Source of the DNA: an uncultured Candidatus Saccharibacteria bacterium
GTDB taxonomy: Bacteria > Patescibacteriota > Minisyncoccia > Phycocordibacterales > Zambryskibacteraceae
Direction: 5' to 3'
DNA length: 64,000 bases
Assembly: GCA_964349945.1 (NCBI GenBank)
Contig: CAYGIH010000001.1
Location: forward strand, 227,718 to 291,717
Below the pieces are notes generated by a model. It searched no databases and had not been told where the DNA came from. It saw only the letters and a list, made by a program, of their open reading frames with translations. Positions within the stretch are counted from its first letter, which is position 1; each line of letters begins with the position of its first letter. Both the position numbers and the translations under genes were made by a program. Positions 12,867 through 54,457 of this stretch are shown in pieces.

Positions 12867-13583
12867 TTATAAATTATTAGGAATTTCTAAAGAATCTAAA
12901 ATACCTGTTTCCTCAATCATATCCTGCAAATTTCCAGTTTCTGGATAATTCCATCCTATCATAGTTAAATTTTTACATTCTCCATAATGAATTGCTGTTG
13001 AAGAAAACTTTGTATTTGTGATTAACCAACCCTCATCCAAGACTCTTTTCTTTCCACCATAATTAAAAACTGTTCCGGCTTCTCGTATGTCATCAAAACG
13101 AGCTTTCACATAAAGTGCCACTTTTAAATCTGACTTGGTTCCAAGTTCATTATGATATTTTGCTTCACACATAATTAGTTTTTCCTTATTCCAAGCCACC
13201 ACATCTATTTCATGAGATACACAACTACCAAGGACTATTTGATCTGTGACAGTCTCATAACCCTTCGCTTCGAGTAGTCGTGCTACAAACTTTTCGAAAG
13301 GAAAACCAGATGGTCCAAGACTCATTACTATTCTTCTTATAGAGTATCTCCTCGCAACCTGTTTTTCGATTTTATGAAGTATGTCAAAAGCATATTTATA
13401 TATATCGCCAGTGCTCATATTATCCTTTAATTCACCTAAAATACGACTGACTACTTTCTCTATAGCACTGTCTGTGGCACCTGCTCTGAATAATGAGGAA
13501 CGCAACTTGTTCATATCAAACGGCTCCCTCTTGCCGTTTGCCTTTAATATAATGATTTCTCTTTCTTCGATGTTTTGATTCAT
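12867..13583 (-). CDS. ATP-cone domain fused to a restriction-endonuclease-like PD-(D/E)xK (Mrr-cat-like) domain
   Basis: N-terminal NrdR-like ATP-cone ('IILKANGKREPFDMNKLRSSLFRAG'). C-terminal 'HEIDVVAWNKEKLIMCEAKYH' D...ExK nuclease core. Confidence 0.6.
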   Translation of the reverse strand: MNQNIEEREIIILKANGKREPFDMNKLRSSLFRAGATDSAIEKVVSRILGELKDNMSTGDIYKYAFDILHKIEKQVARRYSIRRIVMSLGPSGFPFEKFVARLLEAKGYETVTDQIVLGSCVSHEIDVVAWNKEKLIMCEAKYHNELGTKSDLKVALYVKARFDDIREAGTVFNYGGKKRVLDEGWLITNTKFSSTAIHYGECKNLTMIGWNYPETGNLQDMIEETGILDSLEIPNNL

Positions 13584-15594: not shown

Positions 15595-16800
15595 CTACAT
15601 TGGTAAATTCGAAGGAGCTTCTCCCTTTTTAGAAGGTAAACGAGCAAGGGTAGGTGTAGCTGCCACTGTAGAACTAGGGAAATGCCATATAGTGGCCAAC
15701 TCCTCAGATGTCAGGATAAATGGTTTGCCATGGAAATGTTTGAATGGAGAGTTGAAAAATGATCGCCTCTTATAAGCTTCAAGTAGATTAATCTCATTTT
15801 TTCTCTTTCGGATACCCTTAAAATCCTGCCATGGATAATCGTAGCTTGCGTTAAAACTGGGTTTGAATCCATTCAAGTTATTAGAACCAAATTGTTTAAA
15901 ACTCCCTAAGAGACCCCCAATATTGTTTTTATTTAAAACATCCTTTTCTGCTATGTACGCAGCCCTAATCATTGTGTCAAAAGCTGGCTTAGCCAATGTT
16001 CTCTCTATTGCCTTAATCGTGTCATTTTGTGATTCTGATAAATTCAAATAACTAGTCTTCTTTTCATCAGCTGTCTTAAGTGTCGCTTTCTTTAATATTT
16101 CATTAATTTCTTTTTTAACTCCATCTGACCAATCAGGTTTAAGAGAAAGTCGACCAAATTTTATTCCTTCTTTTGTGTGTCCTTGCACTAAAATTTGAAT
16201 CCAAGCTTGCTCTCCTTTTTTTAATGAACCAAGAAATTCAAGTGTGGGTACTATTGGATCATTTTTATATTCCTCTTTTGGATCTTTATCCAGACCATAC
16301 TCTACATAAGTTTTTATCGGATATGCATCTGCCTTTGTGAGGGCAAACTGACCAATCCATCCAAACGAAATCTTCTCTGGATTATAATGAACATCTAAAG
16401 TGTAATCTTTAGCTTCGTGTACCTCTACATTTGGAAATTGAGCATAAAGTTGTGCTTCAATAATATTTTTAAATTTTGGGGAGGTCCAAATATAAAAATG
16501 AACATGCCCTCCTATGGAAGCTATTTCAAGCGAAAACCAAGATCTGACTCTGCCTTTAAAATATACATCTATTAAGCTCCCCACACTCGTTTGATGAAGA
16601 GTATTCATAAATATTTCCATTGATAACGGAGACTTGAGAATCTCATTCGGTATTTTAATCTCAAGAAGAGTACTGCCCTGTTCTTTTATATACTCACGTC
16701 TCTTATAATTCATCCAAGTATCAAACCAAAACAATAGAATAAACACTGGCACCCAAATAGGAGCGTAGTATTCTAATAGAGAAACAGCAGTCATTAACAT
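15595..16800 (-). CDS. Hypothetical protein with N-terminal TM helix (401 aa)
   Basis: Hydrophobic N-terminus 'VSLLEYYAPIWVPVFILLFWF'. No recognised catalytic motif. Conserved-looking C-terminal 'ILTSEELATIWHFPS'. Confidence 0.5.
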   Translation of the reverse strand: MLMTAVSLLEYYAPIWVPVFILLFWFDTWMNYKRREYIKEQGSTLLEIKIPNEILKSPLSMEIFMNTLHQTSVGSLIDVYFKGRVRSWFSLEIASIGGHVHFYIWTSPKFKNIIEAQLYAQFPNVEVHEAKDYTLDVHYNPEKISFGWIGQFALTKADAYPIKTYVEYGLDKDPKEEYKNDPIVPTLEFLGSLKKGEQAWIQILVQGHTKEGIKFGRLSLKPDWSDGVKKEINEILKKATLKTADEKKTSYLNLSESQNDTIKAIERTLAKPAFDTMIRAAYIAEKDVLNKNNIGGLLGSFKQFGSNNLNGFKPSFNASYDYPWQDFKGIRKRKNEINLLEAYKRRSFFNSPFKHFHGKPFILTSEELATIWHFPSSTVAATPTLARLPSKKGEAPSNLPM

Positions 16801-45029: not shown

Positions 45030-45575
45030 ATGAAAACACTCTTTAAAATAATCGTTGTTGTCCTAATAGTTCTGGGTATTTGGTTTCTTTATAATAAAAC
45101 ATCAAACGCCCCAACTTCAGACGATATAGTAAATCAAGCCTTACTAACTCACCCTGACCCATCCAATGCTACCTTTGAATTTGAGGATGAATCCGTAACA
45201 TTAAAAAATGGGATTCACGAAGGGAAGATTGAAAATAGTTCTGCCACCGTTGAAACAACATTATTAGATGTAATTGGTTACGGTGACCTAAACAATGACA
45301 AAAAGGAGGATGCAGTTGTAGTACTTCTTCAAGATGGCGCTGGTTCAGGATTATTTGTATACGTTGCCGGTTACGTTTCTGCGCCACTAAATTACATTGG
45401 TTCAAATGCTCTATTTATTGGTGATAGAATAGAACCAAAATCTATTGCTATTAAGAATGAATTAATTACTCTCACTTATTTAGACAGAAAAGCAAATGAG
45501 CCAATGTCTGCAGAGCCGACTGTTATGAAAACAAAGAATTATAAGTATACAAAGGGAACGTTGGCTGAAATATAA
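45030..45575 (+). CDS. Hypothetical secreted or membrane-anchored protein (181 aa)
   Basis: N-terminal hydrophobic segment 'LFKIIVVVLIVLGIWFLY'. Confidence 0.45.
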   Translation: MKTLFKIIVVVLIVLGIWFLYNKTSNAPTSDDIVNQALLTHPDPSNATFEFEDESVTLKNGIHEGKIENSSATVETTLLDVIGYGDLNNDKKEDAVVVLLQDGAGSGLFVYVAGYVSAPLNYIGSNALFIGDRIEPKSIAIKNELITLTYLDRKANEPMSAEPTVMKTKNYKYTKGTLAEI

Positions 45576-48493: not shown

Positions 48494-49573
48494 TTGTCCA
48501 TGTCAAACAAACTAAGTACAGATTCATATAAGGGGGTTCGAGATTTTTACCCAGAAGACCAATTCGTTCAAAACTACATTTTTGGAGTTTGGAAGAAGAC
48601 TGCAGAAAGTTTTGGTTATGTTGAATATGGAGCATCTATCCTCGAACCTTCAGAGATTTATAAAGAGAAATCAGGTGAAGAAATAGTGAACGAGCAGACA
48701 TTCACTTTCATAGACAGAGGAGAAAGAGAGGTGACACTCAGGCCCGAAATGACACCTACAGTGGCTCGTATGGTAGCAGCGCATAAACGAGAGCTCGGAT
48801 TTCCTCTTCGTTGGTATTCTGTTCCTAATTTATTTCGCTATGAAGCGCCGCAAAGAGGTCGACTAAGAGAGCACTGGCAATTGAACGTAGATATATTTGG
48901 CTCTGGGGCACTTGAAGCAGATGTAGAAATAATAAATATTGCATATAGAATAATGTGCAATTTTGGGGCAAAGGATAGTGACTTTGAAATTAGATTAAAC
49001 AGTCATTCTAATAATGATGATTTAAACAAAGTCGTCTCAGCTCTGCGAGGGTTAGGTATTAATAATACTAAAATTGATGAAACCTTGGCTCGCGGACAGG
49101 CATACTATACAGGAGTGGTTTTTGAATTCTTTGATACTGATCCTGCGAACCCTCGTTCAATTCTTGGTGGTGGAAGATATGATAATCTCATAGATTTATT
49201 TTCTAGTGATAATGTCCCCGCTGTTGGCTTTGGAGCTGGTGACGTAACAATCAAGGATTTCCTTATAACTCACAATCTTTTACCTTCATTTAATTCAACT
49301 ACAAGCCTATATATCGCTTTATTATCTACTGACTTTATTCAATACGCAGGAGAGATGGCTGACACCCTAAGACAAAATGGAGTAAATGTTGAGATAGATT
49401 TTAGTGGACGCAAGGTTGGCGATCAGATTAAAACTGCCGACAAACACAAAATACCGTTTTTGATTGTTATTGGTGACGAGGAAATTAATTCCAATACCTT
49501 TAAACTCAAAGATCTCAGAACTGGAGAGGAAAAGCAGGTGACCGCAAACGAAATCCCAACATGCGTAAAATAG
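48494..49573 (+). CDS. hisS: Histidyl-tRNA synthetase (compact, 359 aa)
   Basis: 'GVRDFYPED' motif, motif-2-like 'FRYEAPQRGRLREHWQLNVDIFG'. C-terminal anticodon-binding domain ('IPFLIVIGDEEI'). Confidence 0.8.
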   Translation: MSMSNKLSTDSYKGVRDFYPEDQFVQNYIFGVWKKTAESFGYVEYGASILEPSEIYKEKSGEEIVNEQTFTFIDRGEREVTLRPEMTPTVARMVAAHKRELGFPLRWYSVPNLFRYEAPQRGRLREHWQLNVDIFGSGALEADVEIINIAYRIMCNFGAKDSDFEIRLNSHSNNDDLNKVVSALRGLGINNTKIDETLARGQAYYTGVVFEFFDTDPANPRSILGGGRYDNLIDLFSSDNVPAVGFGAGDVTIKDFLITHNLLPSFNSTTSLYIALLSTDFIQYAGEMADTLRQNGVNVEIDFSGRKVGDQIKTADKHKIPFLIVIGDEEINSNTFKLKDLRTGEEKQVTANEIPTCVK

Positions 49574-50136
49574 TTTTTGATATAGAAACAAAAAATGTCT
49601 TTGCAGATGTGGGTAAAAATGATCCTTCACTATTAGACATATCTGTTGTTTGTATTCATGATTCGGAAACCGATTCATATTCTTCGTATTTAGAAGAAGA
49701 TTTACCAAAACTTTGGCCAATACTTGAAAGGGCTGACATGCTCATAGGGTACAACTCTGATCATTTTGACATACCACTACTAAACAAATATTATCCTGGT
49801 GATTTAACCAAAATTAAATCCTTGGATATCCTTAAAGAAATACAAAAATCATTTGGTCGCCGTATGAAACTTGACCAAATTGCTGAAGGCACATTAGGAA
49901 AGAATAAAACAGGTCATGGCTTTGATGCGATAACCTGGTGGAAAAAAGGTGAAATAGATAAGATAATTAAATACTGTCTTGAAGATGTGAAGATAACTAA
50001 AGAAGTATATGAATATGCCAGAGCAAATAATAAACTAATTTTCAAAGAAGGAGGGGTTATGAATGATATTAAGCTTGATACTTCAGGCTGGGAGGAACCA
50101 AAAGAAAATAAATTAACCTTTACTCTACCTTTTTAG
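49561..50136 (+). CDS. Stand-alone DEDD 3'-5' exonuclease related to the PolB exonuclease domain
   Basis: Exo I 'FDIET', Exo II 'YNSDHFDIPLL' (PolB-type YN..FD), Exo III 'YCLEDVKITKEVY'. Confidence 0.65.
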   Translation: MRKIVFDIETKNVFADVGKNDPSLLDISVVCIHDSETDSYSSYLEEDLPKLWPILERADMLIGYNSDHFDIPLLNKYYPGDLTKIKSLDILKEIQKSFGRRMKLDQIAEGTLGKNKTGHGFDAITWWKKGEIDKIIKYCLEDVKITKEVYEYARANNKLIFKEGGVMNDIKLDTSGWEEPKENKLTFTLPF

Positions 50137-50930
50137 AAAAAATATAATATTAGAACAGCAAGGCCAATACGATACCAGATAAATATATAAAGTTTGTGAG
50201 TTTTTAAATACTGTATCAAAAAGTGAATGGATGCTAACCCCACGGTAAATGAGACTAGAAAGCCTATACCCAGAGGGAGTGAACCAATCGACGCTATCTC
50301 ACCCGCTCTATAAACTTCCATAAAGGATTTTAAGCCCGCTCCAACAATAATTGGGAAGGATAGTAAGAAGCTAAATCTAGTTGCCATCTCTCGAGTTAAA
50401 CCTAAAAATAATCCACCAGAAATAGTTGCGCCAGAACGAGATACACCAGGCACAAGAGCTAAACTTTGAAACAAACCAATAATAAATCCCTTACCTGTGC
50501 TTAAAATTTTATTTTGCCTTGCATATTTCTCTGCCAAAAACATTAATAACGATCCAGCCAGAAGTGACCAGGCCACTAGATGAGCACTCCTAAACGTAGT
50601 TTCCATATATTTCTCTACATAGAGTCCAATTATTACAGCAGGTATAGTGCTTATAATAATTGCTTGAATCATAATTTTATCTTCATTTGCAACAATTTTC
50701 CTAAGACCCATCCTTATAAATACCTTGAAAAGATGACATAAATCAGACCAAAAATATACTAAAACAGCCAAAATTGTCGCAGATTGAAAAATAGCATCAA
50801 CACTGAGACTTTCTATACCTTGAATATTTAATATTTTATGGCTCAAAATTAAATGGCCAGAGGAAGATATAGGAATAAATTCTGTTGCCCCTTCCACAAT
50901 GCCTAAAATTATGGCGTGCCAAACTGACAT
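50133..50930 (-). CDS. uppP: Undecaprenyl-diphosphatase UppP (BacA)
   Basis: 'PGVSRSGATISGGLFLGLTRE' BacA signature. Polytopic. Confidence 0.88.
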   Translation of the reverse strand: MSVWHAIILGIVEGATEFIPISSSGHLILSHKILNIQGIESLSVDAIFQSATILAVLVYFWSDLCHLFKVFIRMGLRKIVANEDKIMIQAIIISTIPAVIIGLYVEKYMETTFRSAHLVAWSLLAGSLLMFLAEKYARQNKILSTGKGFIIGLFQSLALVPGVSRSGATISGGLFLGLTREMATRFSFLLSFPIIVGAGLKSFMEVYRAGEIASIGSLPLGIGFLVSFTVGLASIHFLIQYLKTHKLYIFIWYRIGLAVLILYFF

Positions 50931-50987
50931 ATTTACATTTTAGCATACGTGATATAATTCACTGCATACAAATTAATTTTTAGAATA

Positions 50988-51716
50988 ATGATTAAAAAAG
51001 ACAATCCATTAGTTGTTCCAATATCTATAATTATTGCTGGCGGACTTATTGCCATTGCAATATATTTAGGTGGAAAGAGTAACCAACAATATGCAGCCGC
51101 CCCTACAAATAACAACCAACAACAGCAACAACAGCAACCACAACAACCACAACAACCAAATGGACAAGTGGCTCCTGTTACTGATAAAGATAATATTGTT
51201 GGAAGCAGGGATGCCAAGGTTATCATTGTGGAATATTCCGATTCTGAATGTCCTTTCTGTAGATCATTCCATAAAACTATGCTTCAAGTAGTAAAGGAAT
51301 ATAAACCAAGTGAAGTAGCTTGGGTTTATAGACAATTCCCTATTGCCCAGCTTCACCCAAATGCACCTAAGCAGTCAGAAGCAATGTATTGTGCGAACGA
51401 TCTCGGAGGAAACAAGGGCTTTTGGTCATTTACAAATAGACTCTTTGAAGTTGCTGGAGCAGGTGGACCATTAGATATGAATGAACTCCCTAAGATTGCT
51501 AGTTTTGCTGGTCTCGATACAGATGCATTTAATCAATGCCTATCAAGCGGTAAGTTTACTAAGGCTGTTCAAGATGCAGTGAGTGCAGCAGGCGCAGCAG
51601 GAGCACAAGGAACTCCATACTCAGTAGCTATTAGTAAGTCAGGACAGCAACTTGTTATCAGTGGCGCCCAACCATTTGAACAAGTAAAGTCAACAATTGA
51701 TTCTCTACTAAAATAA
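50988..51716 (+). CDS. DsbA-like thiol:disulfide oxidoreductase with N-terminal TM anchor and Gln/Pro-rich linker
   Basis: 'CPFC' CxxC active site in a thioredoxin fold. 'NNNQQQQQQQPQQPQQPNG' linker encoded by a CAA/CAG/CCA-rich repeat. Confidence 0.75.
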   Translation: MIKKDNPLVVPISIIIAGGLIAIAIYLGGKSNQQYAAAPTNNNQQQQQQQPQQPQQPNGQVAPVTDKDNIVGSRDAKVIIVEYSDSECPFCRSFHKTMLQVVKEYKPSEVAWVYRQFPIAQLHPNAPKQSEAMYCANDLGGNKGFWSFTNRLFEVAGAGGPLDMNELPKIASFAGLDTDAFNQCLSSGKFTKAVQDAVSAAGAAGAQGTPYSVAISKSGQQLVISGAQPFEQVKSTIDSLLK

Positions 51717-51718
51717 AA

Positions 51719-53227
51719 TTGGAAAACAAAAAGCAAGTTATTCTATCTAAAACTAATTACATTCTCTACAGAGATTGTCCGAAGAATACTTGGCTCAAAA
51801 TCCATAAACCAGACGTTTACTTCAAGTCAGAGCTTTCTGATTTTGAAAAATCAATTATAGAAACAGGAAACGAAGTAGAATTAGAAGCTAGAAAACTGTT
51901 CCCTACTGGTGTTCTCATCGAAGGACGTGATGAAGACGCTCAAAAATTAACGGCAGATTATATTAGAGAAAAACAGCCAACATTCTTTCAGGCTGTTTTT
52001 TCTATTAATGACTATCTGGCAGCTACAGACATTTTGAAATTTCATCCAGAAACTAATTCGTATTCTATATACGAAGTGAAAGCTTCAAATAGTGTAGATT
52101 TAAAGGTTCATATTCATGACCTGGCCTTTCAGGTTAATGTCTTACGACAAGTTGGGTTAACAGTCACAAGTGCCGTTGTTATCCATTTGAATCCAGAATA
52201 TGTAAGAGATGGAGAACTTGAGATTACTAAGCTCTTTCAGGAAACAAATGTTACTAAACAGGTCGAAGAAATTTCTATGGAGGTTTGGGATGAAATGAAT
52301 TTTGCCTTAAAGTATTTGAGAGATGAGAATGAACCCACTGGTCCATGTTCATGTCTACGCAAGGGCCGTTCGAAACACTGCACTACATTCCACTACTCAA
52401 ACCCTCAAGTACCTGATTATAGTGTCCATGATATAGCCAGAATTGGTTTGAGTAAGGTTAAACTTACTGAGCTTGTTGACTCAAACATCTTTCACATCAA
52501 AGATGTGCCTAGAGAATTTGAACTATCAGAAACCCAGAGAAATCAAATTGATTCATATGTTTTCGACAGAGTTATAATTGACCATGACAAAATCAAAGAA
52601 GAATTTGAAGATTTAGTGTTCCCTCTTTATTTCCTAGACTATGAGACCTTCCCCGCTGCCATACCACGCTTCGATGGATTTTCACCCTATCAGCAAATTC
52701 CCTTTCAATATTCTCTACATGTTGTAGACAAGCCAGAAAGTGAGCCAAAACATTTTGAATTTCTCTATACAGAAAACGGTGACCCTAGTCACTCCTTTGT
52801 AGAGTCAATGCAAAAACACATAGGTAAAGTTGGAAGTATAATTGTCTGGCACAAAAGTTTTGAATGTAGCAGAAATAAGGAATTAGCCACAAGAATACCC
52901 GAAGCAAAAAGTTTCTTAAATGACATTAATAACCGCACTTATGACCTTGAGGATATCTTCAAGAAGCAATACCATGTCCACAAAGACTACAAAGGTAGTA
53001 GCTCTATCAAGAAAGTTTTACCAGTTCTTGCTCCAGATTTGTCATATAAGAACCTAGAAATCCAAGAAGGCGGCAGCGCAACTCAAGCATGGAACAAAGT
53101 TGTCACTGCAGAATTAGAACCATTTGAACGGGAAACAATTATAGATAACCTTAAAAACTATTGTAAGTTAGATACTTACGCCATGTATGCTATTTGGAGA
53201 GAACTCAATAGTCTAATATCCTCTTAG
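51719..53227 (+). CDS. PD-(D/E)xK (Cas4/RecB-like) nuclease fused to a C-terminal DUF2779-type RNase-H-like exonuclease domain
   Basis: N-terminal '[10 protein letters not shown]' followed by 'IYEVKAS' ExK core. Central Cys cluster '[12 protein letters not shown]'. C-terminal 'LYFLDYETF' and '[13 protein letters not shown]' DEDD-like motifs. Confidence 0.6.
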
Positions 53228-54457
53228 ACGGTTTATTTTATCGTGCTGACGAATCTTCTCATGAGCCTTGGCTTCGATTTGTCGAATACGCTCTCGAGTG
53301 ACACCAAAGACTTTTCCCACTTCCTCTAGTGTATGAGTATATCCATCAAGGAGGCCGTGGCGCATTTCAAGAATTTTACGTTCCTTTGGAGGAAGATCAT
53401 TAAGGATTTCTCTCACTTGGTCCTGAATAATTCTACGAGAGGATTCCATATCTGGAGAAAGAATTTTGTCATCAGCGATGAAATCTCCGAGCTTGCTCTT
53501 ATCATCTCCGTCATCCCCCACTGGGTTCTCCAAAGATACAGTTGATTGATCAATCTTTTCAATTTGATAAATCTTATCTACATCAAGGTTCATCTCTGTG
53601 GCAATTTCCTCCTGTAGAGGCTCACGACCCAAATCTTGTGTTAAACGTCTTACAACTTGTTTATATTTAGCAATAGTTTCCACCATATGCACTGGCACGC
53701 GGATAGTCCTAGATTGGTCGGCCAAAGCACGTGTAATAGCCTGTCTAATCCACCAAGTGGCGTAAGTAGAGAACTTATAGCCCTTTGTCCAATCAAACTT
53801 GTCTACGGCCTTAAATAGCCCCAAATTACCCTCTTGGATGAGGTCTAGGAGAGTTAGATCAGGTGAACGGTTAGCGTATTTCTTGGCTATAGAGACAACC
53901 AAACGGAGGTTAGCCTTGGCTAGGAGGTTTTTAGCATCCTCATCTCCGGCTTCAATTCTCTTTGCCAGTTCCTTCTCCATATTCCCAGAAATAAGTGGGT
54001 ACTGCCCAATTTCCTTGAGATACATTTGGATAGAATCGTATGCAGAATCAGACTTTCCATAAGAATATTTTTTACCTGTTTCCTCTACGGGCATTTCTAG
54101 TAATCCTCCACTTTCAAGTACATCAATGCCTAATATGTGAAGTTTGGTGTATAGCTCGTCTAAGAAAATAATATCATTTTCAATAGTTGGAAATTCCTTT
54201 AATATTTCATCATAAGTAACAAATCCTTTTTCTTTACCCCTTGATGTTAGCTTATTAAGCTTATGTAGAATATCCAAATCTTTTTTAGAAGTAGAAACCT
54301 TTTTAGTTTTCTCAACTTTTTTTGAAACCTTTTTGGCTTTAACTTTTTTAACAACTTTTTTCTTTATGCTTTTTGCCTTTTTGGAAACCCTTTTAGCCAA
54401 CTTTTTAGCGGGCTTGGTTTTCTTATTCAACTTTTTTATTTTTTTATTTTTGGGCAT
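53213..54457 (-). CDS. rpoD: Primary RNA polymerase sigma factor RpoD with Lys-rich (histone-H1-like) N-terminal extension
   Basis: Region 2 '[40 protein letters not shown]'. Region 4 '[22 protein letters not shown]'. N-terminal about 55 aa is K/A/V-rich. Confidence 0.93.

Follow-up and report, generated by a model that had tools for sequence, protein, structure and literature searches.

Two predicted DEDDy-type nucleases in a housekeeping block of Parcubacteria: a stand-alone exonuclease with a putative clamp-binding tail and a Cas4-like DUF2779 protein

Introduction

The combination of a Cas4-like nuclease and a DEDDy exonuclease in proteins of the DUF2779 family has already been described computationally, in 2014 and again in 2026. 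Majorek et al. listed DUF2779 as family F.17, co-occurring with DUF83, which resembles PD-(D/E)xK nucleases, and predicted that it is a 3'-5' exonuclease (PMC3985635). The later HHpred analysis found a Cas4-like plus DEDD(y) architecture in MMSYN1_0389, a quasi-essential protein of JCVI-syn3.0 that retains only two of the four Cas4-type cysteines and whose C-terminal part has MrfB as best match (PMC13621843), while transposon disruption of the homologue in M. bovis (Mbov_0804) led to deficient growth in cell culture (PMC7373297). Here, we analyse a 502-aa protein of this family together with a smaller, 191-aa exonuclease, which we name exo191. Both are encoded within a few kilobases of each other on a 64-kb stretch of DNA (contig CAYGIH010000001.1, positions 227,718 to 291,717; the whole stretch is called the window below), which belongs to the housekeeping part of the chromosome of a Parcubacteria/Minisyncoccia bacterium, a member of the Candidate Phyla Radiation (CPR).

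What is known about the bacterial beta sliding clamp DnaN also bears on exo191. Clamp-binding peptides follow the consensus QL(D/S)LF and are typically found in flexible termini (PMC6511837). In mycobacteria, DnaQ, which acts as a second proofreader, binds DnaN through a C-terminal Q[Y/L]ALF motif (PMC11348249). Our overall explanation of the locus, to which we give a probability of about 0.6, is that the two proteins are independent genome-maintenance nucleases, exo191 being tethered to the clamp and the DUF2779 protein processing DNA ends.

exo191, a predicted DEDDy 3'-5' exonuclease

Judging from its residues and its structural model, exo191 is a complete, active-looking DEDDy 3'-5' exonuclease of the PolB-exo/MrfB-like branch. 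Its features, with conservation scored on a 28-sequence alignment, are as follows.

49561..50136 (+): exo191, predicted 191-aa stand-alone PolB-type DEDDy 3'-5' exonuclease, ATG start
49579..49587 (+): Exo I motif D7-I-E9; D7 and E9 invariant, modelled on strand beta1
49753..49770 (+): Exo II motif N65-S-D-H-F69-D70; H68, F69 and D70 invariant, N65 conserved in at least 90%
49972..49986 (+): Exo III motif Y138-C-L-E-D142 (YxxxD, DEDDy type); Y138, C139 and D142 invariant
50113..50133 (+): C-terminal tail L185-TFTLPF191, a putative beta-clamp-binding peptide that follows a variable linker

Completeness of the active site is argued from D7, E9, D70, Y138 and D142, which are invariant, and from N65, which is nearly so. 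An earlier, sequence-only reading of the window had seen a PolB-exonuclease-like DEDD(y) domain in both proteins, which Pfam and fold searches bear out, and had envisaged that either might turn out to be an inactive scaffold lacking catalytic residues, none of which is missing in the alignments. Pfam matches exo191 to PF13482 (RNase_H_2; 43.3 bits for a cut-off of 22, 5e-11) and to PF10108 (DNA_pol_B_exo2; 25.5 bits for a cut-off of 24, 1.2e-5), and the PHROG match is phrog_403, 'DNA polymerase exonuclease subunit' (3e-20). In phmmer alignments, Exo II aligns with the 'YNGDxFD' motif of PolB. The AlphaFold2 model (predicted local distance difference test (pLDDT) 89, predicted template modelling score (pTM) 0.87) places Exo III on a long helix spanning residues 132-156, and its best Foldseek matches in the Protein Data Bank (PDB) are the exonuclease domains of archaeal PolB, RB69/T4 gp43 and T7 polymerase, with query-normalised template modelling scores of 0.54-0.64, E values down to 5e-7 and a probability of 1.0.

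Homologues of exo191 are abundant, with 7884 matching clusters, the best 120 of which are all 191 aa long and at least 75% identical. Many of the 191-aa homologues are publicly annotated as 'DEAD/DEAH box helicase domain protein' without containing any helicase domain (P0126, P0131, P0139, P0140 and others). A search of 1.84 billion representative proteins returned 2299 relatives, 76 of them below 1e-30, and those examined come in three forms: (i) stand-alone proteins of ~190 aa, (ii) proteins of ~265-370 aa, several with a WYL domain and (iii) fusions of ~570-1000 aa, in which a helicase composed of DEAD, Helicase_C, WHD_HRQ1 and MZB (the MrfA Zn-binding domain) is followed by the exonuclease. 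The helicase name borne by the 191-aa homologues has probably spread from these MrfA-helicase-exonuclease fusion proteins.

A putative clamp-binding tail

The last 12 residues of exo191 are PKENKLTFTLPF. Residues ~175-191 have a pLDDT of ~50 and are predicted to be disordered. The linker is variable in the alignment, in contrast to four invariant positions of the tail (T186, L189, P190 and F191). Across homologues, the tail follows the pattern (L/M/I/V)T(F/Y)(T/S)L(P/G)F, which reads LTFTLPF in the window. Hexapeptide variants of the clamp-binding motif occur in Hda and Pol IV, the motif of Hda being QLSLPL, and TFTLPF fits this hexapeptide type minus the Gln. Many distant relatives of stand-alone size end in ...QTLF, ...QSLF, ...QKGLF, ...KQLGLF or ...QALF, others in ...L[ST]LP[FL] or ...QMTLG[VL]. 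Because such ends match the clamp consensus, we infer that the stand-alone enzymes are clamp-recruited, and consider binding of exo191 to DnaN to be rather likely.

When the motif was counted with two regular expressions modelled on the consensus forms, it was found at the C-terminus of 120/120 close homologues and of 39 of the 111 distant representatives of stand-alone size, whereas it was missing from all 21 representatives above 300 aa (fusions with a helicase, WYL or another domain) and present in a single one of 924 control open reading frames (ORFs) from the same loci. The resulting enrichment (39/111 vs 1/924; Fisher p = 6e-40) is indicative only, as the expressions were written after the sequences had been seen. 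In the window itself, exo191 is the sole real gene with a clamp-type C-terminal end. The fused relatives would presumably be recruited by their helicase instead of the clamp. An alternative view of '...LPF' as resembling the tail of single-stranded DNA-binding protein was rejected, since the exo191 tail is not acidic and its relatives have canonical QxxLF motifs at the same position. The open-access literature that we searched yielded no report of a clamp-binding PF13482/PF10108 exonuclease, which is weak evidence of absence, and nothing relevant on the status of DnaQ in Parcubacteria.

The DUF2779 protein

The larger protein is predicted to join two nucleases of different folds. Its features are listed below.

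51719..53227 (+): 502-aa DUF2779-family protein, predicted to comprise a Cas4-like iron-sulfur (Fe-S) PD-(D/E)xK nuclease, a helical linker and a DEDDy 3'-5' exonuclease; TTG start
51719..52414 (+): predicted N-terminal Cas4/RecB-type PD-(D/E)xK nuclease domain, aa 1 to ~232
51776..51778 (+): putative Cys ligand C20 (YRDCPKNTW), invariant
52028..52081 (+): catalytic D104 and E119-x-K121 (YEVK), invariant
52346..52381 (+): putative Cys ligands C210/C212/C221, invariant
52619..53224 (+): C-terminal DUF2779/DEDDy exonuclease domain, aa ~301-502
52637..52645 (+): D307-x-E309 (FLDYET), invariant
52850..52864 (+): H378-KSF-E382 (HKSFE), F381 and E382 invariant
53159..53173 (+): Y481-CKL-D485, Y481 and D485 invariant

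Assignment of the C-terminal half to PF11074 (DUF2779) is clear-cut (aa 304-429, profile positions 1-126 of 126, 148.3 bits for a cut-off of 23.3, 1.7e-43). Across the family, Exo II reads (H/N/S)-K-x-F381-E382, which makes this a DEDDy-type site with a Glu in Exo II, and a fold search with this half returned exonuclease domains of family B polymerases as best matches, consistent with an RNase H-like exonuclease fold. The score against the UU173 family (NCBIfam NF045869), 84 bits for a cut-off of 225 and over the C-terminal part only, places the protein outside that family.

The AlphaFold model (pLDDT 84, pTM 0.71) has two globular halves, with a low-confidence region at 216-234, and the fold search places the N-terminal half among PD-(D/E)xK nucleases, with the catalytic D...(D/E)xK present. 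Sequence comparisons gave less: Pfam PDDEXK_1 (PF12705) and Cas_Cas4 (PF01930) have no match in the protein at E<=0.01, phmmer and hmmsearch against the PDB found nothing relevant for this half, and an hhalign comparison with a Pfam-verified Cas4-like neighbour family was not significant, though the D and ExK motifs were aligned. The cysteines are arranged one plus three (C20, then C210-x-C212-x8-C221) as in Cas4/AddB, and the four, all invariant, may well bind a 4Fe-4S cluster. The fusion of a Cas4/RecB-type PD-(D/E)xK domain, a Cys cluster and DUF2779 that had been read from the letters is thus borne out by fold and invariant residues; among the Pfam families that had been expected, DNA_pol_B_exo2 (in exo191) and PF11074 were found, but not PDDEXK_1. 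With no CRISPR array and no cas genes in the window, the N-terminal domain is at best 'solo Cas4-like'.

A conserved housekeeping block

Four neighbouring genes frame the nucleases.

48494..49573 (+): hisS, short histidyl-tRNA synthetase (HisRS), 359 aa; Pfam tRNA-synt_His and HGTP_anticodon
50133..50930 (-): uppP/bacA, undecaprenyl-diphosphatase, housekeeping, between the nucleases; PF02673, 5e-76
50988..51716 (+): DsbA-like thioredoxin-fold protein, housekeeping, between the nucleases; PF13462, 1.8e-21 and PF01323, 1.1e-14
53213..54457 (-): rpoD, primary sigma factor, first gene of the rpoD-dnaG-rpoC-rpoB block; Pfam sigma-70 regions r1-r4 and synteny

All ORFs and motifs quoted by the sequence-only reading are present and exact, as is the 13-nt overlap that it had noticed between hisS, whose TAG stop occupies 49571-49573, and exo191, whose ATG lies at 49561. 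The TTG start of the 502-aa gene is 2 nt past the dsbA stop, and rpoD converges on that gene with a 15-nt overlap. The rest of the window includes dnaK/dnaJ/grpE, rpoA, alaS, leuS, mnmA, a family-4 uracil-DNA glycosylase gene, uvrA/uvrB/uvrC, tgt, mreB, priA, def/fmt, typA, truB and dnaG. Homologues of both nucleases carry the names Minisyncoccia, Parcubacteria, Giovannonibacteria and Zambryskibacteria, the same two genes have been called independently in public assemblies of this sequence and, with thousands of conserved homologues, neither is a chance ORF.

For the comparison of gene neighbourhoods, 86 DUF2779-seeded loci were gathered, of which 83 were left after dropping the window copies and one duplicate, as well as six exonuclease-seeded loci with flanks of 6-7 kb. 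A single-protein scan of genome contigs had returned 3 loci and an alignment-based metagenome scan 80. The block typA-truB-hisS-exo191-(uppP or PAP2)-dsbA-[slot]-rpoD-dnaG-rpoC-rpoB recurs across several Parcubacteria clades. Across syntenic loci, identity is 63-78% for exo191, compared with 64-81% for TypA, 70-88% for RpoD, 56-69% for HisRS and 45-56% for DnaG. In 15/17 loci, hisS lies directly upstream of exo191, in most cases overlapping it by up to 13 nt or leaving a gap of at most 9 nt, as it does in three further exonuclease-seeded loci, and exo191 is probably translationally coupled to hisS. The slot between dsbA and rpoD, which DUF2779 may occupy in either orientation, holds in 4/6 exonuclease-seeded loci a gene for a 971-990-aa protein with a UvrD helicase and PDDEXK_1 (AddA-like). 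This alternation hints at a recurrent 'nuclease slot' and perhaps at a functional equivalence of DUF2779 and the AddA-like gene. Slot coordinates are L087 7324-10239, L088 7777-10749, L095 9380-12352 and L097 8823-11780, L096 8761-10272 and, in the window, the boundary region 53213-53227.

The two nucleases do not form a conserved pair, and they are neighbours solely in lineages that have the whole housekeeping block. Of the 83 DUF2779-seeded loci (52 with 2.5 kb or more of sequence upstream), only 12 have exo191 no more than five genes away from DUF2779, and DUF2779 is found within the flanks of exo191 in only one of the six exonuclease-seeded loci, on the opposite strand; in the window they are separated by dsbA and the opposite-strand uppP. 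A duplicated paralogous pair was also considered and rejected: hhalign of the two exonuclease-domain family alignments was not significant, with only YCxxD aligned (the profiles are shallow, with an effective number of sequences of ~2), and we treat the two domains as members of the same superfamily only. A DNA polymerase or primase-polymerase partner, which the sequence-only reading had suggested looking for, was not seen among the window ORFs; dnaG, two genes further downstream, belongs to the conserved rpoD-dnaG block. In our explanation, the two nuclease genes are independent, vertically conserved and adjacent via lineage-specific synteny, and there is no joint system.

Nor does this stretch look mobile. 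GC content at the nuclease locus (0.36-0.39) is the same as in the remaining window, with a flat profile; flanking repeats around both genes are short, chance-level matches only; CRISPR and tandem arrays, sought at window scale, are absent; and no integrase, terminase, methylase or cas genes (including cas1/cas2) are among the window ORFs. Mobile-element boundaries at the locus were rejected in view of the chance-level repeats, the lack of tandem arrays and the flat GC. PADLOC gave no significant defence match for either protein (the best were a CRISPR-associated DEDDh model for exo191, 1.1e-5 over aa 32-111 only, and PDC-S02 for the 502-aa protein, 0.0055), there are no defence-system partner genes in the window, and the identity of either nuclease with a known defence system was rejected on these weak matches. 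Against 50,697 phage records, the 502-aa protein had no match and exo191 three weak ones; in IMG/VR, a pattern search found no exo191, and DUF2779 matches were rare. A phage origin at this locus was rejected on these essentially negative (exo191) or rare (DUF2779) occurrences. A promoter/terminator scan, which found no more sites than in shuffled sequence, was uninformative.

Several side observations concern this neighbourhood. The Pfam match to the HisRS catalytic domain is split, with profile positions 1-146 of 308 in its best stretch, and HisRS length ranges from 314 to 440 aa among relatives in public gene calls; the insertion of the catalytic domain seems to be variably reduced in this lineage. 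In many related loci, a PAP2-family phosphatase replaces BacA/UppP at the same position on the other strand (L003 6371-6877, L088 6614-7084, L095 7595-8059, L096 7576-8064, L097 7578-8060), which looks like in-situ non-orthologous displacement, provided that PAP2, too, is an undecaprenyl-pyrophosphate phosphatase. In the DsbA-like protein, the N-terminal part includes a low-complexity tract rich in Asn and Gln, NNNQQQQQQQPQQPQQPN (window 51105-51160), and an antisense ORF of 97 aa with a poly-Cys run (50933-51226, -) is a spurious product of the reverse strand of that tract. Upstream of typA, a 181-aa ORF (45030-45575, +) with no Pfam match is kept in the syntenic block, at 30-73% identity in 12 loci. 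Elsewhere in the window, a 238-aa fusion of an ATP-cone and an Mrr_cat restriction-endonuclease-like domain (12867-13583, -) is an unusual nucleotide-sensing, nuclease-like combination amid housekeeping genes, and a 401-aa ORF (15595-16800, -) has no Pfam match.

DUF2779 relatives in chromosomal and mobile contexts

A phage or defence context, which the sequence-only reading had thought more typical of such nucleases than a housekeeping neighbourhood, does not apply to this locus, with its housekeeping synteny, but it does to a sister clade of DUF2779. Across the loci, DUF2779 is found (i) in a NUDIX-...-ADH-SIMPL-HIT-dnaG-rpoD block in one Parcubacteria clade, (ii) beside genes for a PIF1 helicase and a Cas4-like PDDEXK_1 protein, (iii) next to an ExoX-like exonuclease and (iv) with mobile or defence-type genes, in 25 of the 83 loci. 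Average-linkage clustering of pairwise identities tracks this genomic context. One clade of 17 loci, ~60% identical to the 502-aa protein, has mobile or defence-type neighbours wherever flanks are informative: terminase large subunit (TerL; phrog_38, 1e-76), large serine integrase (SerInt; phrog_95) and ParB-methyltransferase (ParB/MTase; phrog_498), and also superfamily 1 (SF1) helicase-MTES_1575, WYL, PHP-AAA, Fic, type I restriction-modification and GmrSD. SIR2_2 and SNF2 genes, too, are among the neighbours in the 25 loci. The module DUF2779 - ParB/MTase - TerL - SerInt recurs in Parcubacteria-like contigs (L009, L013, L026) and is found on two IMG/VR contigs (L090 2685-10403; L094 1-9458). 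No locus is shared between those with the rpoD/dnaG block and those with mobile neighbours, and the family splits into chromosomal-block clades and prophage/defence-linked clades. Beyond these, 30 plasmids of widely separated phyla carry full-length homologues (27-35% identity, 97-99% coverage), and such homologues are present in free-living bacteria such as Planktothrix, Salinibacter, Paraburkholderia and Azospirillum. The DUF2779/terminase module often has a variable neighbour of defence type, such as an SF1 helicase or a WYL gene, and two copies of DUF2779 are present on one viral contig of 55 kb.

Possible functions and alternatives

How might two independent maintenance nucleases work? 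The LTFTLPF tail would dock exo191 on DnaN, and the clamp-bound enzyme would trim back 3' ends that are mismatched or damaged at primer-template junctions, acting in trans as an editing or gap-repair exonuclease, in analogy with E. coli epsilon or mycobacterial DnaQ bound to the clamp. The 502-aa protein would be a helicase-less, two-polarity processor of DNA ends, stabilised by its Fe-S cluster, in which the N-terminal nuclease would cut single strands 5'-3' or endonucleolytically (by extension from Cas4) and the C-terminal DEDDy domain would degrade 3'-5', in recombinational repair or in the degradation of linear DNA. Recombinational end processing is favoured because the AddA-like gene alternates with DUF2779 in the slot and because of the PIF1 and Cas4-like neighbours. 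A more specific version for exo191, that it is a trans-acting, clamp-tethered proofreader of the Parcubacteria replisome, a PolB-lineage replacement for DnaQ/epsilon, and that stand-alone QxxLF-tailed proteins form an unrecognised class of clamp clients, is tentative and in our view rather improbable.

Several points speak against the explanation that we prefer: (i) the exo191 tail is without the leading Gln of the clamp consensus, (ii) the regular expressions for the tail motif were composed post hoc, after inspecting the sequences, (iii) the clamp motif of mycobacterial DnaQ is dispensable for its antimutator function (PMC11348249), so clamp tethering need not define function, (iv) the linkage of exo191 to hisS in an operon and its proximity to truB could point to an RNA substrate, (v) the PD-(D/E)xK domain of the 502-aa protein goes undetected by sequence profiles and is argued from predicted fold, motifs and literature and (vi) the mobile or defence-type DUF2779 loci (25/83) leave a possible role for or against mobile DNA.

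Among the alternatives for exo191, it is unlikely that the protein is simply an MrfB-type repair exonuclease, removing bulky adducts or crosslinks together with an MrfA-like helicase encoded elsewhere. MrfB is structurally PolB-exo-like (PMC11194089), and relatives with 33-41% identity across the entire exonuclease core have it fused C-terminally to MrfA-type MZB helicases, fusions that also explain the 'DEAD/DEAH box helicase domain protein' misannotation, but an MrfA-like helicase is found neither in the window nor in the 6-7 kb around exo191 in the six exonuclease-seeded loci, MrfB of B. subtilis has a DEDDh site and a TPR domain (PMC11194089) whereas exo191 is DEDDy and has no TPR, PDB sequence searches with exo191 do not recover MrfB (8UN9), and clamp-type tails are specific to stand-alone forms and missing from the helicase-fused ones. 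This repair role and a clamp-tethered one are compatible rather than mutually exclusive. That exo191 acts on RNA, for instance in RNase D-like trimming of tRNA 3' ends, is very unlikely: it would explain the coupling to hisS, which overlaps or abuts exo191 in 15/17 loci, and the adjacent truB, and DEDDy enzymes do include RNase D and NrnC (PMC11194089), yet the best structural matches of exo191 are proofreading domains of DNA polymerases, its relatives are fused to DNA-repair helicases, the C-terminal motifs match ligands of a DNA sliding clamp, and gene order is a weak functional signal in compact CPR genomes.

For the DUF2779 protein, the corresponding alternative is salvage, that is, digestion of DNA mainly to mononucleotides in hosts unable to make nucleotides de novo (CPR, mollicutes). 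Conservation in two reduced-genome groups and quasi-essentiality in JCVI-syn3.0 (PMC13621843) would fit, as would the origin of the M. bovis mutant in the same growth-deficiency screen as mutants in the nanoRNase NrnA and in GdpP (PMC7373297), the complete digestion of DNA to be expected of an opposite-polarity exonuclease pair, and the NUDIX and HIT neighbours in one Parcubacteria clade. We nonetheless hold salvage to be quite unlikely, considering that full-length homologues are common among free-living bacteria whose nucleotide synthesis is complete, that the same screen recovered replication and repair genes too (PMC7373297), and that end processing is indicated by the AddA-like gene found in that slot and by the PIF1 and Cas4-like neighbours. 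Least probable of all is that both nucleases are a phage-derived or anti-phage defence module, or its remnants, inserted among housekeeping genes. It is true that ~60% identical relatives of the DUF2779 protein sit beside terminase, integrase, methyltransferase and defence-type genes (25/83 loci being mobile or defence-type), that their module reaches two IMG/VR contigs and full-length homologues 30 plasmids, and that exo191 has weak matches to a CRISPR-associated DEDDh model (1.1e-5) in PADLOC and to a polymerase exonuclease subunit in PHROG. The window, however, contains no integrase, terminase, methylase, repeat boundaries or GC shift; the whole block is syntenic in several Parcubacteria clades, and block loci and mobile loci share none; exo191 is nearly absent and DUF2779 absent from phage records, and exo191 is absent from IMG/VR by pattern search; and the two same-strand genes are split by an opposite-strand gene, their local co-occurrence being rare.

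Significance and comparison with known systems

Little is new about the large protein, while the small one has an apparently unreported clamp-type tail, a modest novelty. For DUF2779, the additions are the full four-Cys cluster in Parcubacteria, strong conservation in a second reduced-genome group and a split of clades by context, and such comparisons are material for finding the function of an uncharacterised but apparently important nuclease. The tail of exo191 bears on how 3' ends might be edited in CPR bacteria, whose replication and repair sets are minimal, and our reading of this protein would correct a widespread misannotation as 'DEAD/DEAH box helicase domain protein'. If true, stand-alone MrfB/PolB-like exonucleases with QxxLF tails would be unrecognised clients of the sliding clamp in many bacteria, and if the proofreader version held, an editing enzyme would be co-translated with HisRS and almost as conserved as ribosomal factors.

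Compared with known systems, both nucleases have their best structural matches in the proofreading domains of family B polymerases (archaeal PolB, RB69/T4 gp43, E. coli Pol II), with which they share the NxxxFD and YxxxD motif types but, unlike these polymerases, neither has a polymerase domain. The N-terminal half of the 502-aa protein compares with Cas4 (SSO0001, 4IC1; Pcal_0546, 4R5Q; G. sulfurreducens Cas4-Cas1, 7MI4) and with the nuclease domains of AddB/AdnAB, from which the protein differs by its fusion to a 3'-5' exonuclease, by its Cys spacing (CxC-x8-C) and by the lack of accompanying cas1/cas2 or a CRISPR array. Its closest described counterparts are MMSYN1_0389 and Mbov_0804, DUF2779 proteins likewise made of a Cas4-like PD-(D/E)xK domain and a DEDD(y) domain with a Tyr before the last Asp. 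The Parcubacteria protein has all four Cas4-type cysteines, whereas MMSYN1_0389 has only two (PMC13621843), and it is shorter (502 aa) than UU173-type DUF2779 proteins (~650 aa). As for exo191, B. subtilis MrfB (YprB) is a DEDDh enzyme with an N-terminal insertion, a C-terminal TPR domain and MrfA as helicase partner (PMC11194089), whereas exo191 is a 191-aa DEDDy core with a short tail, has Tyr138 in place of the His and lacks an adjacent helicase, so the two are not orthologues by these marks. Mycobacterial DnaQ and E. coli Pol III epsilon are DEDDh rather than DEDDy, and carry a BRCT (DnaQ) or bind alpha (epsilon), while exo191 consists of core and tail only; like exo191, though, they are stand-alone 3'-5' exonucleases, and their short clamp-type motif, located in or close to a flexible C-terminal end, is the working model for the putative one of exo191.

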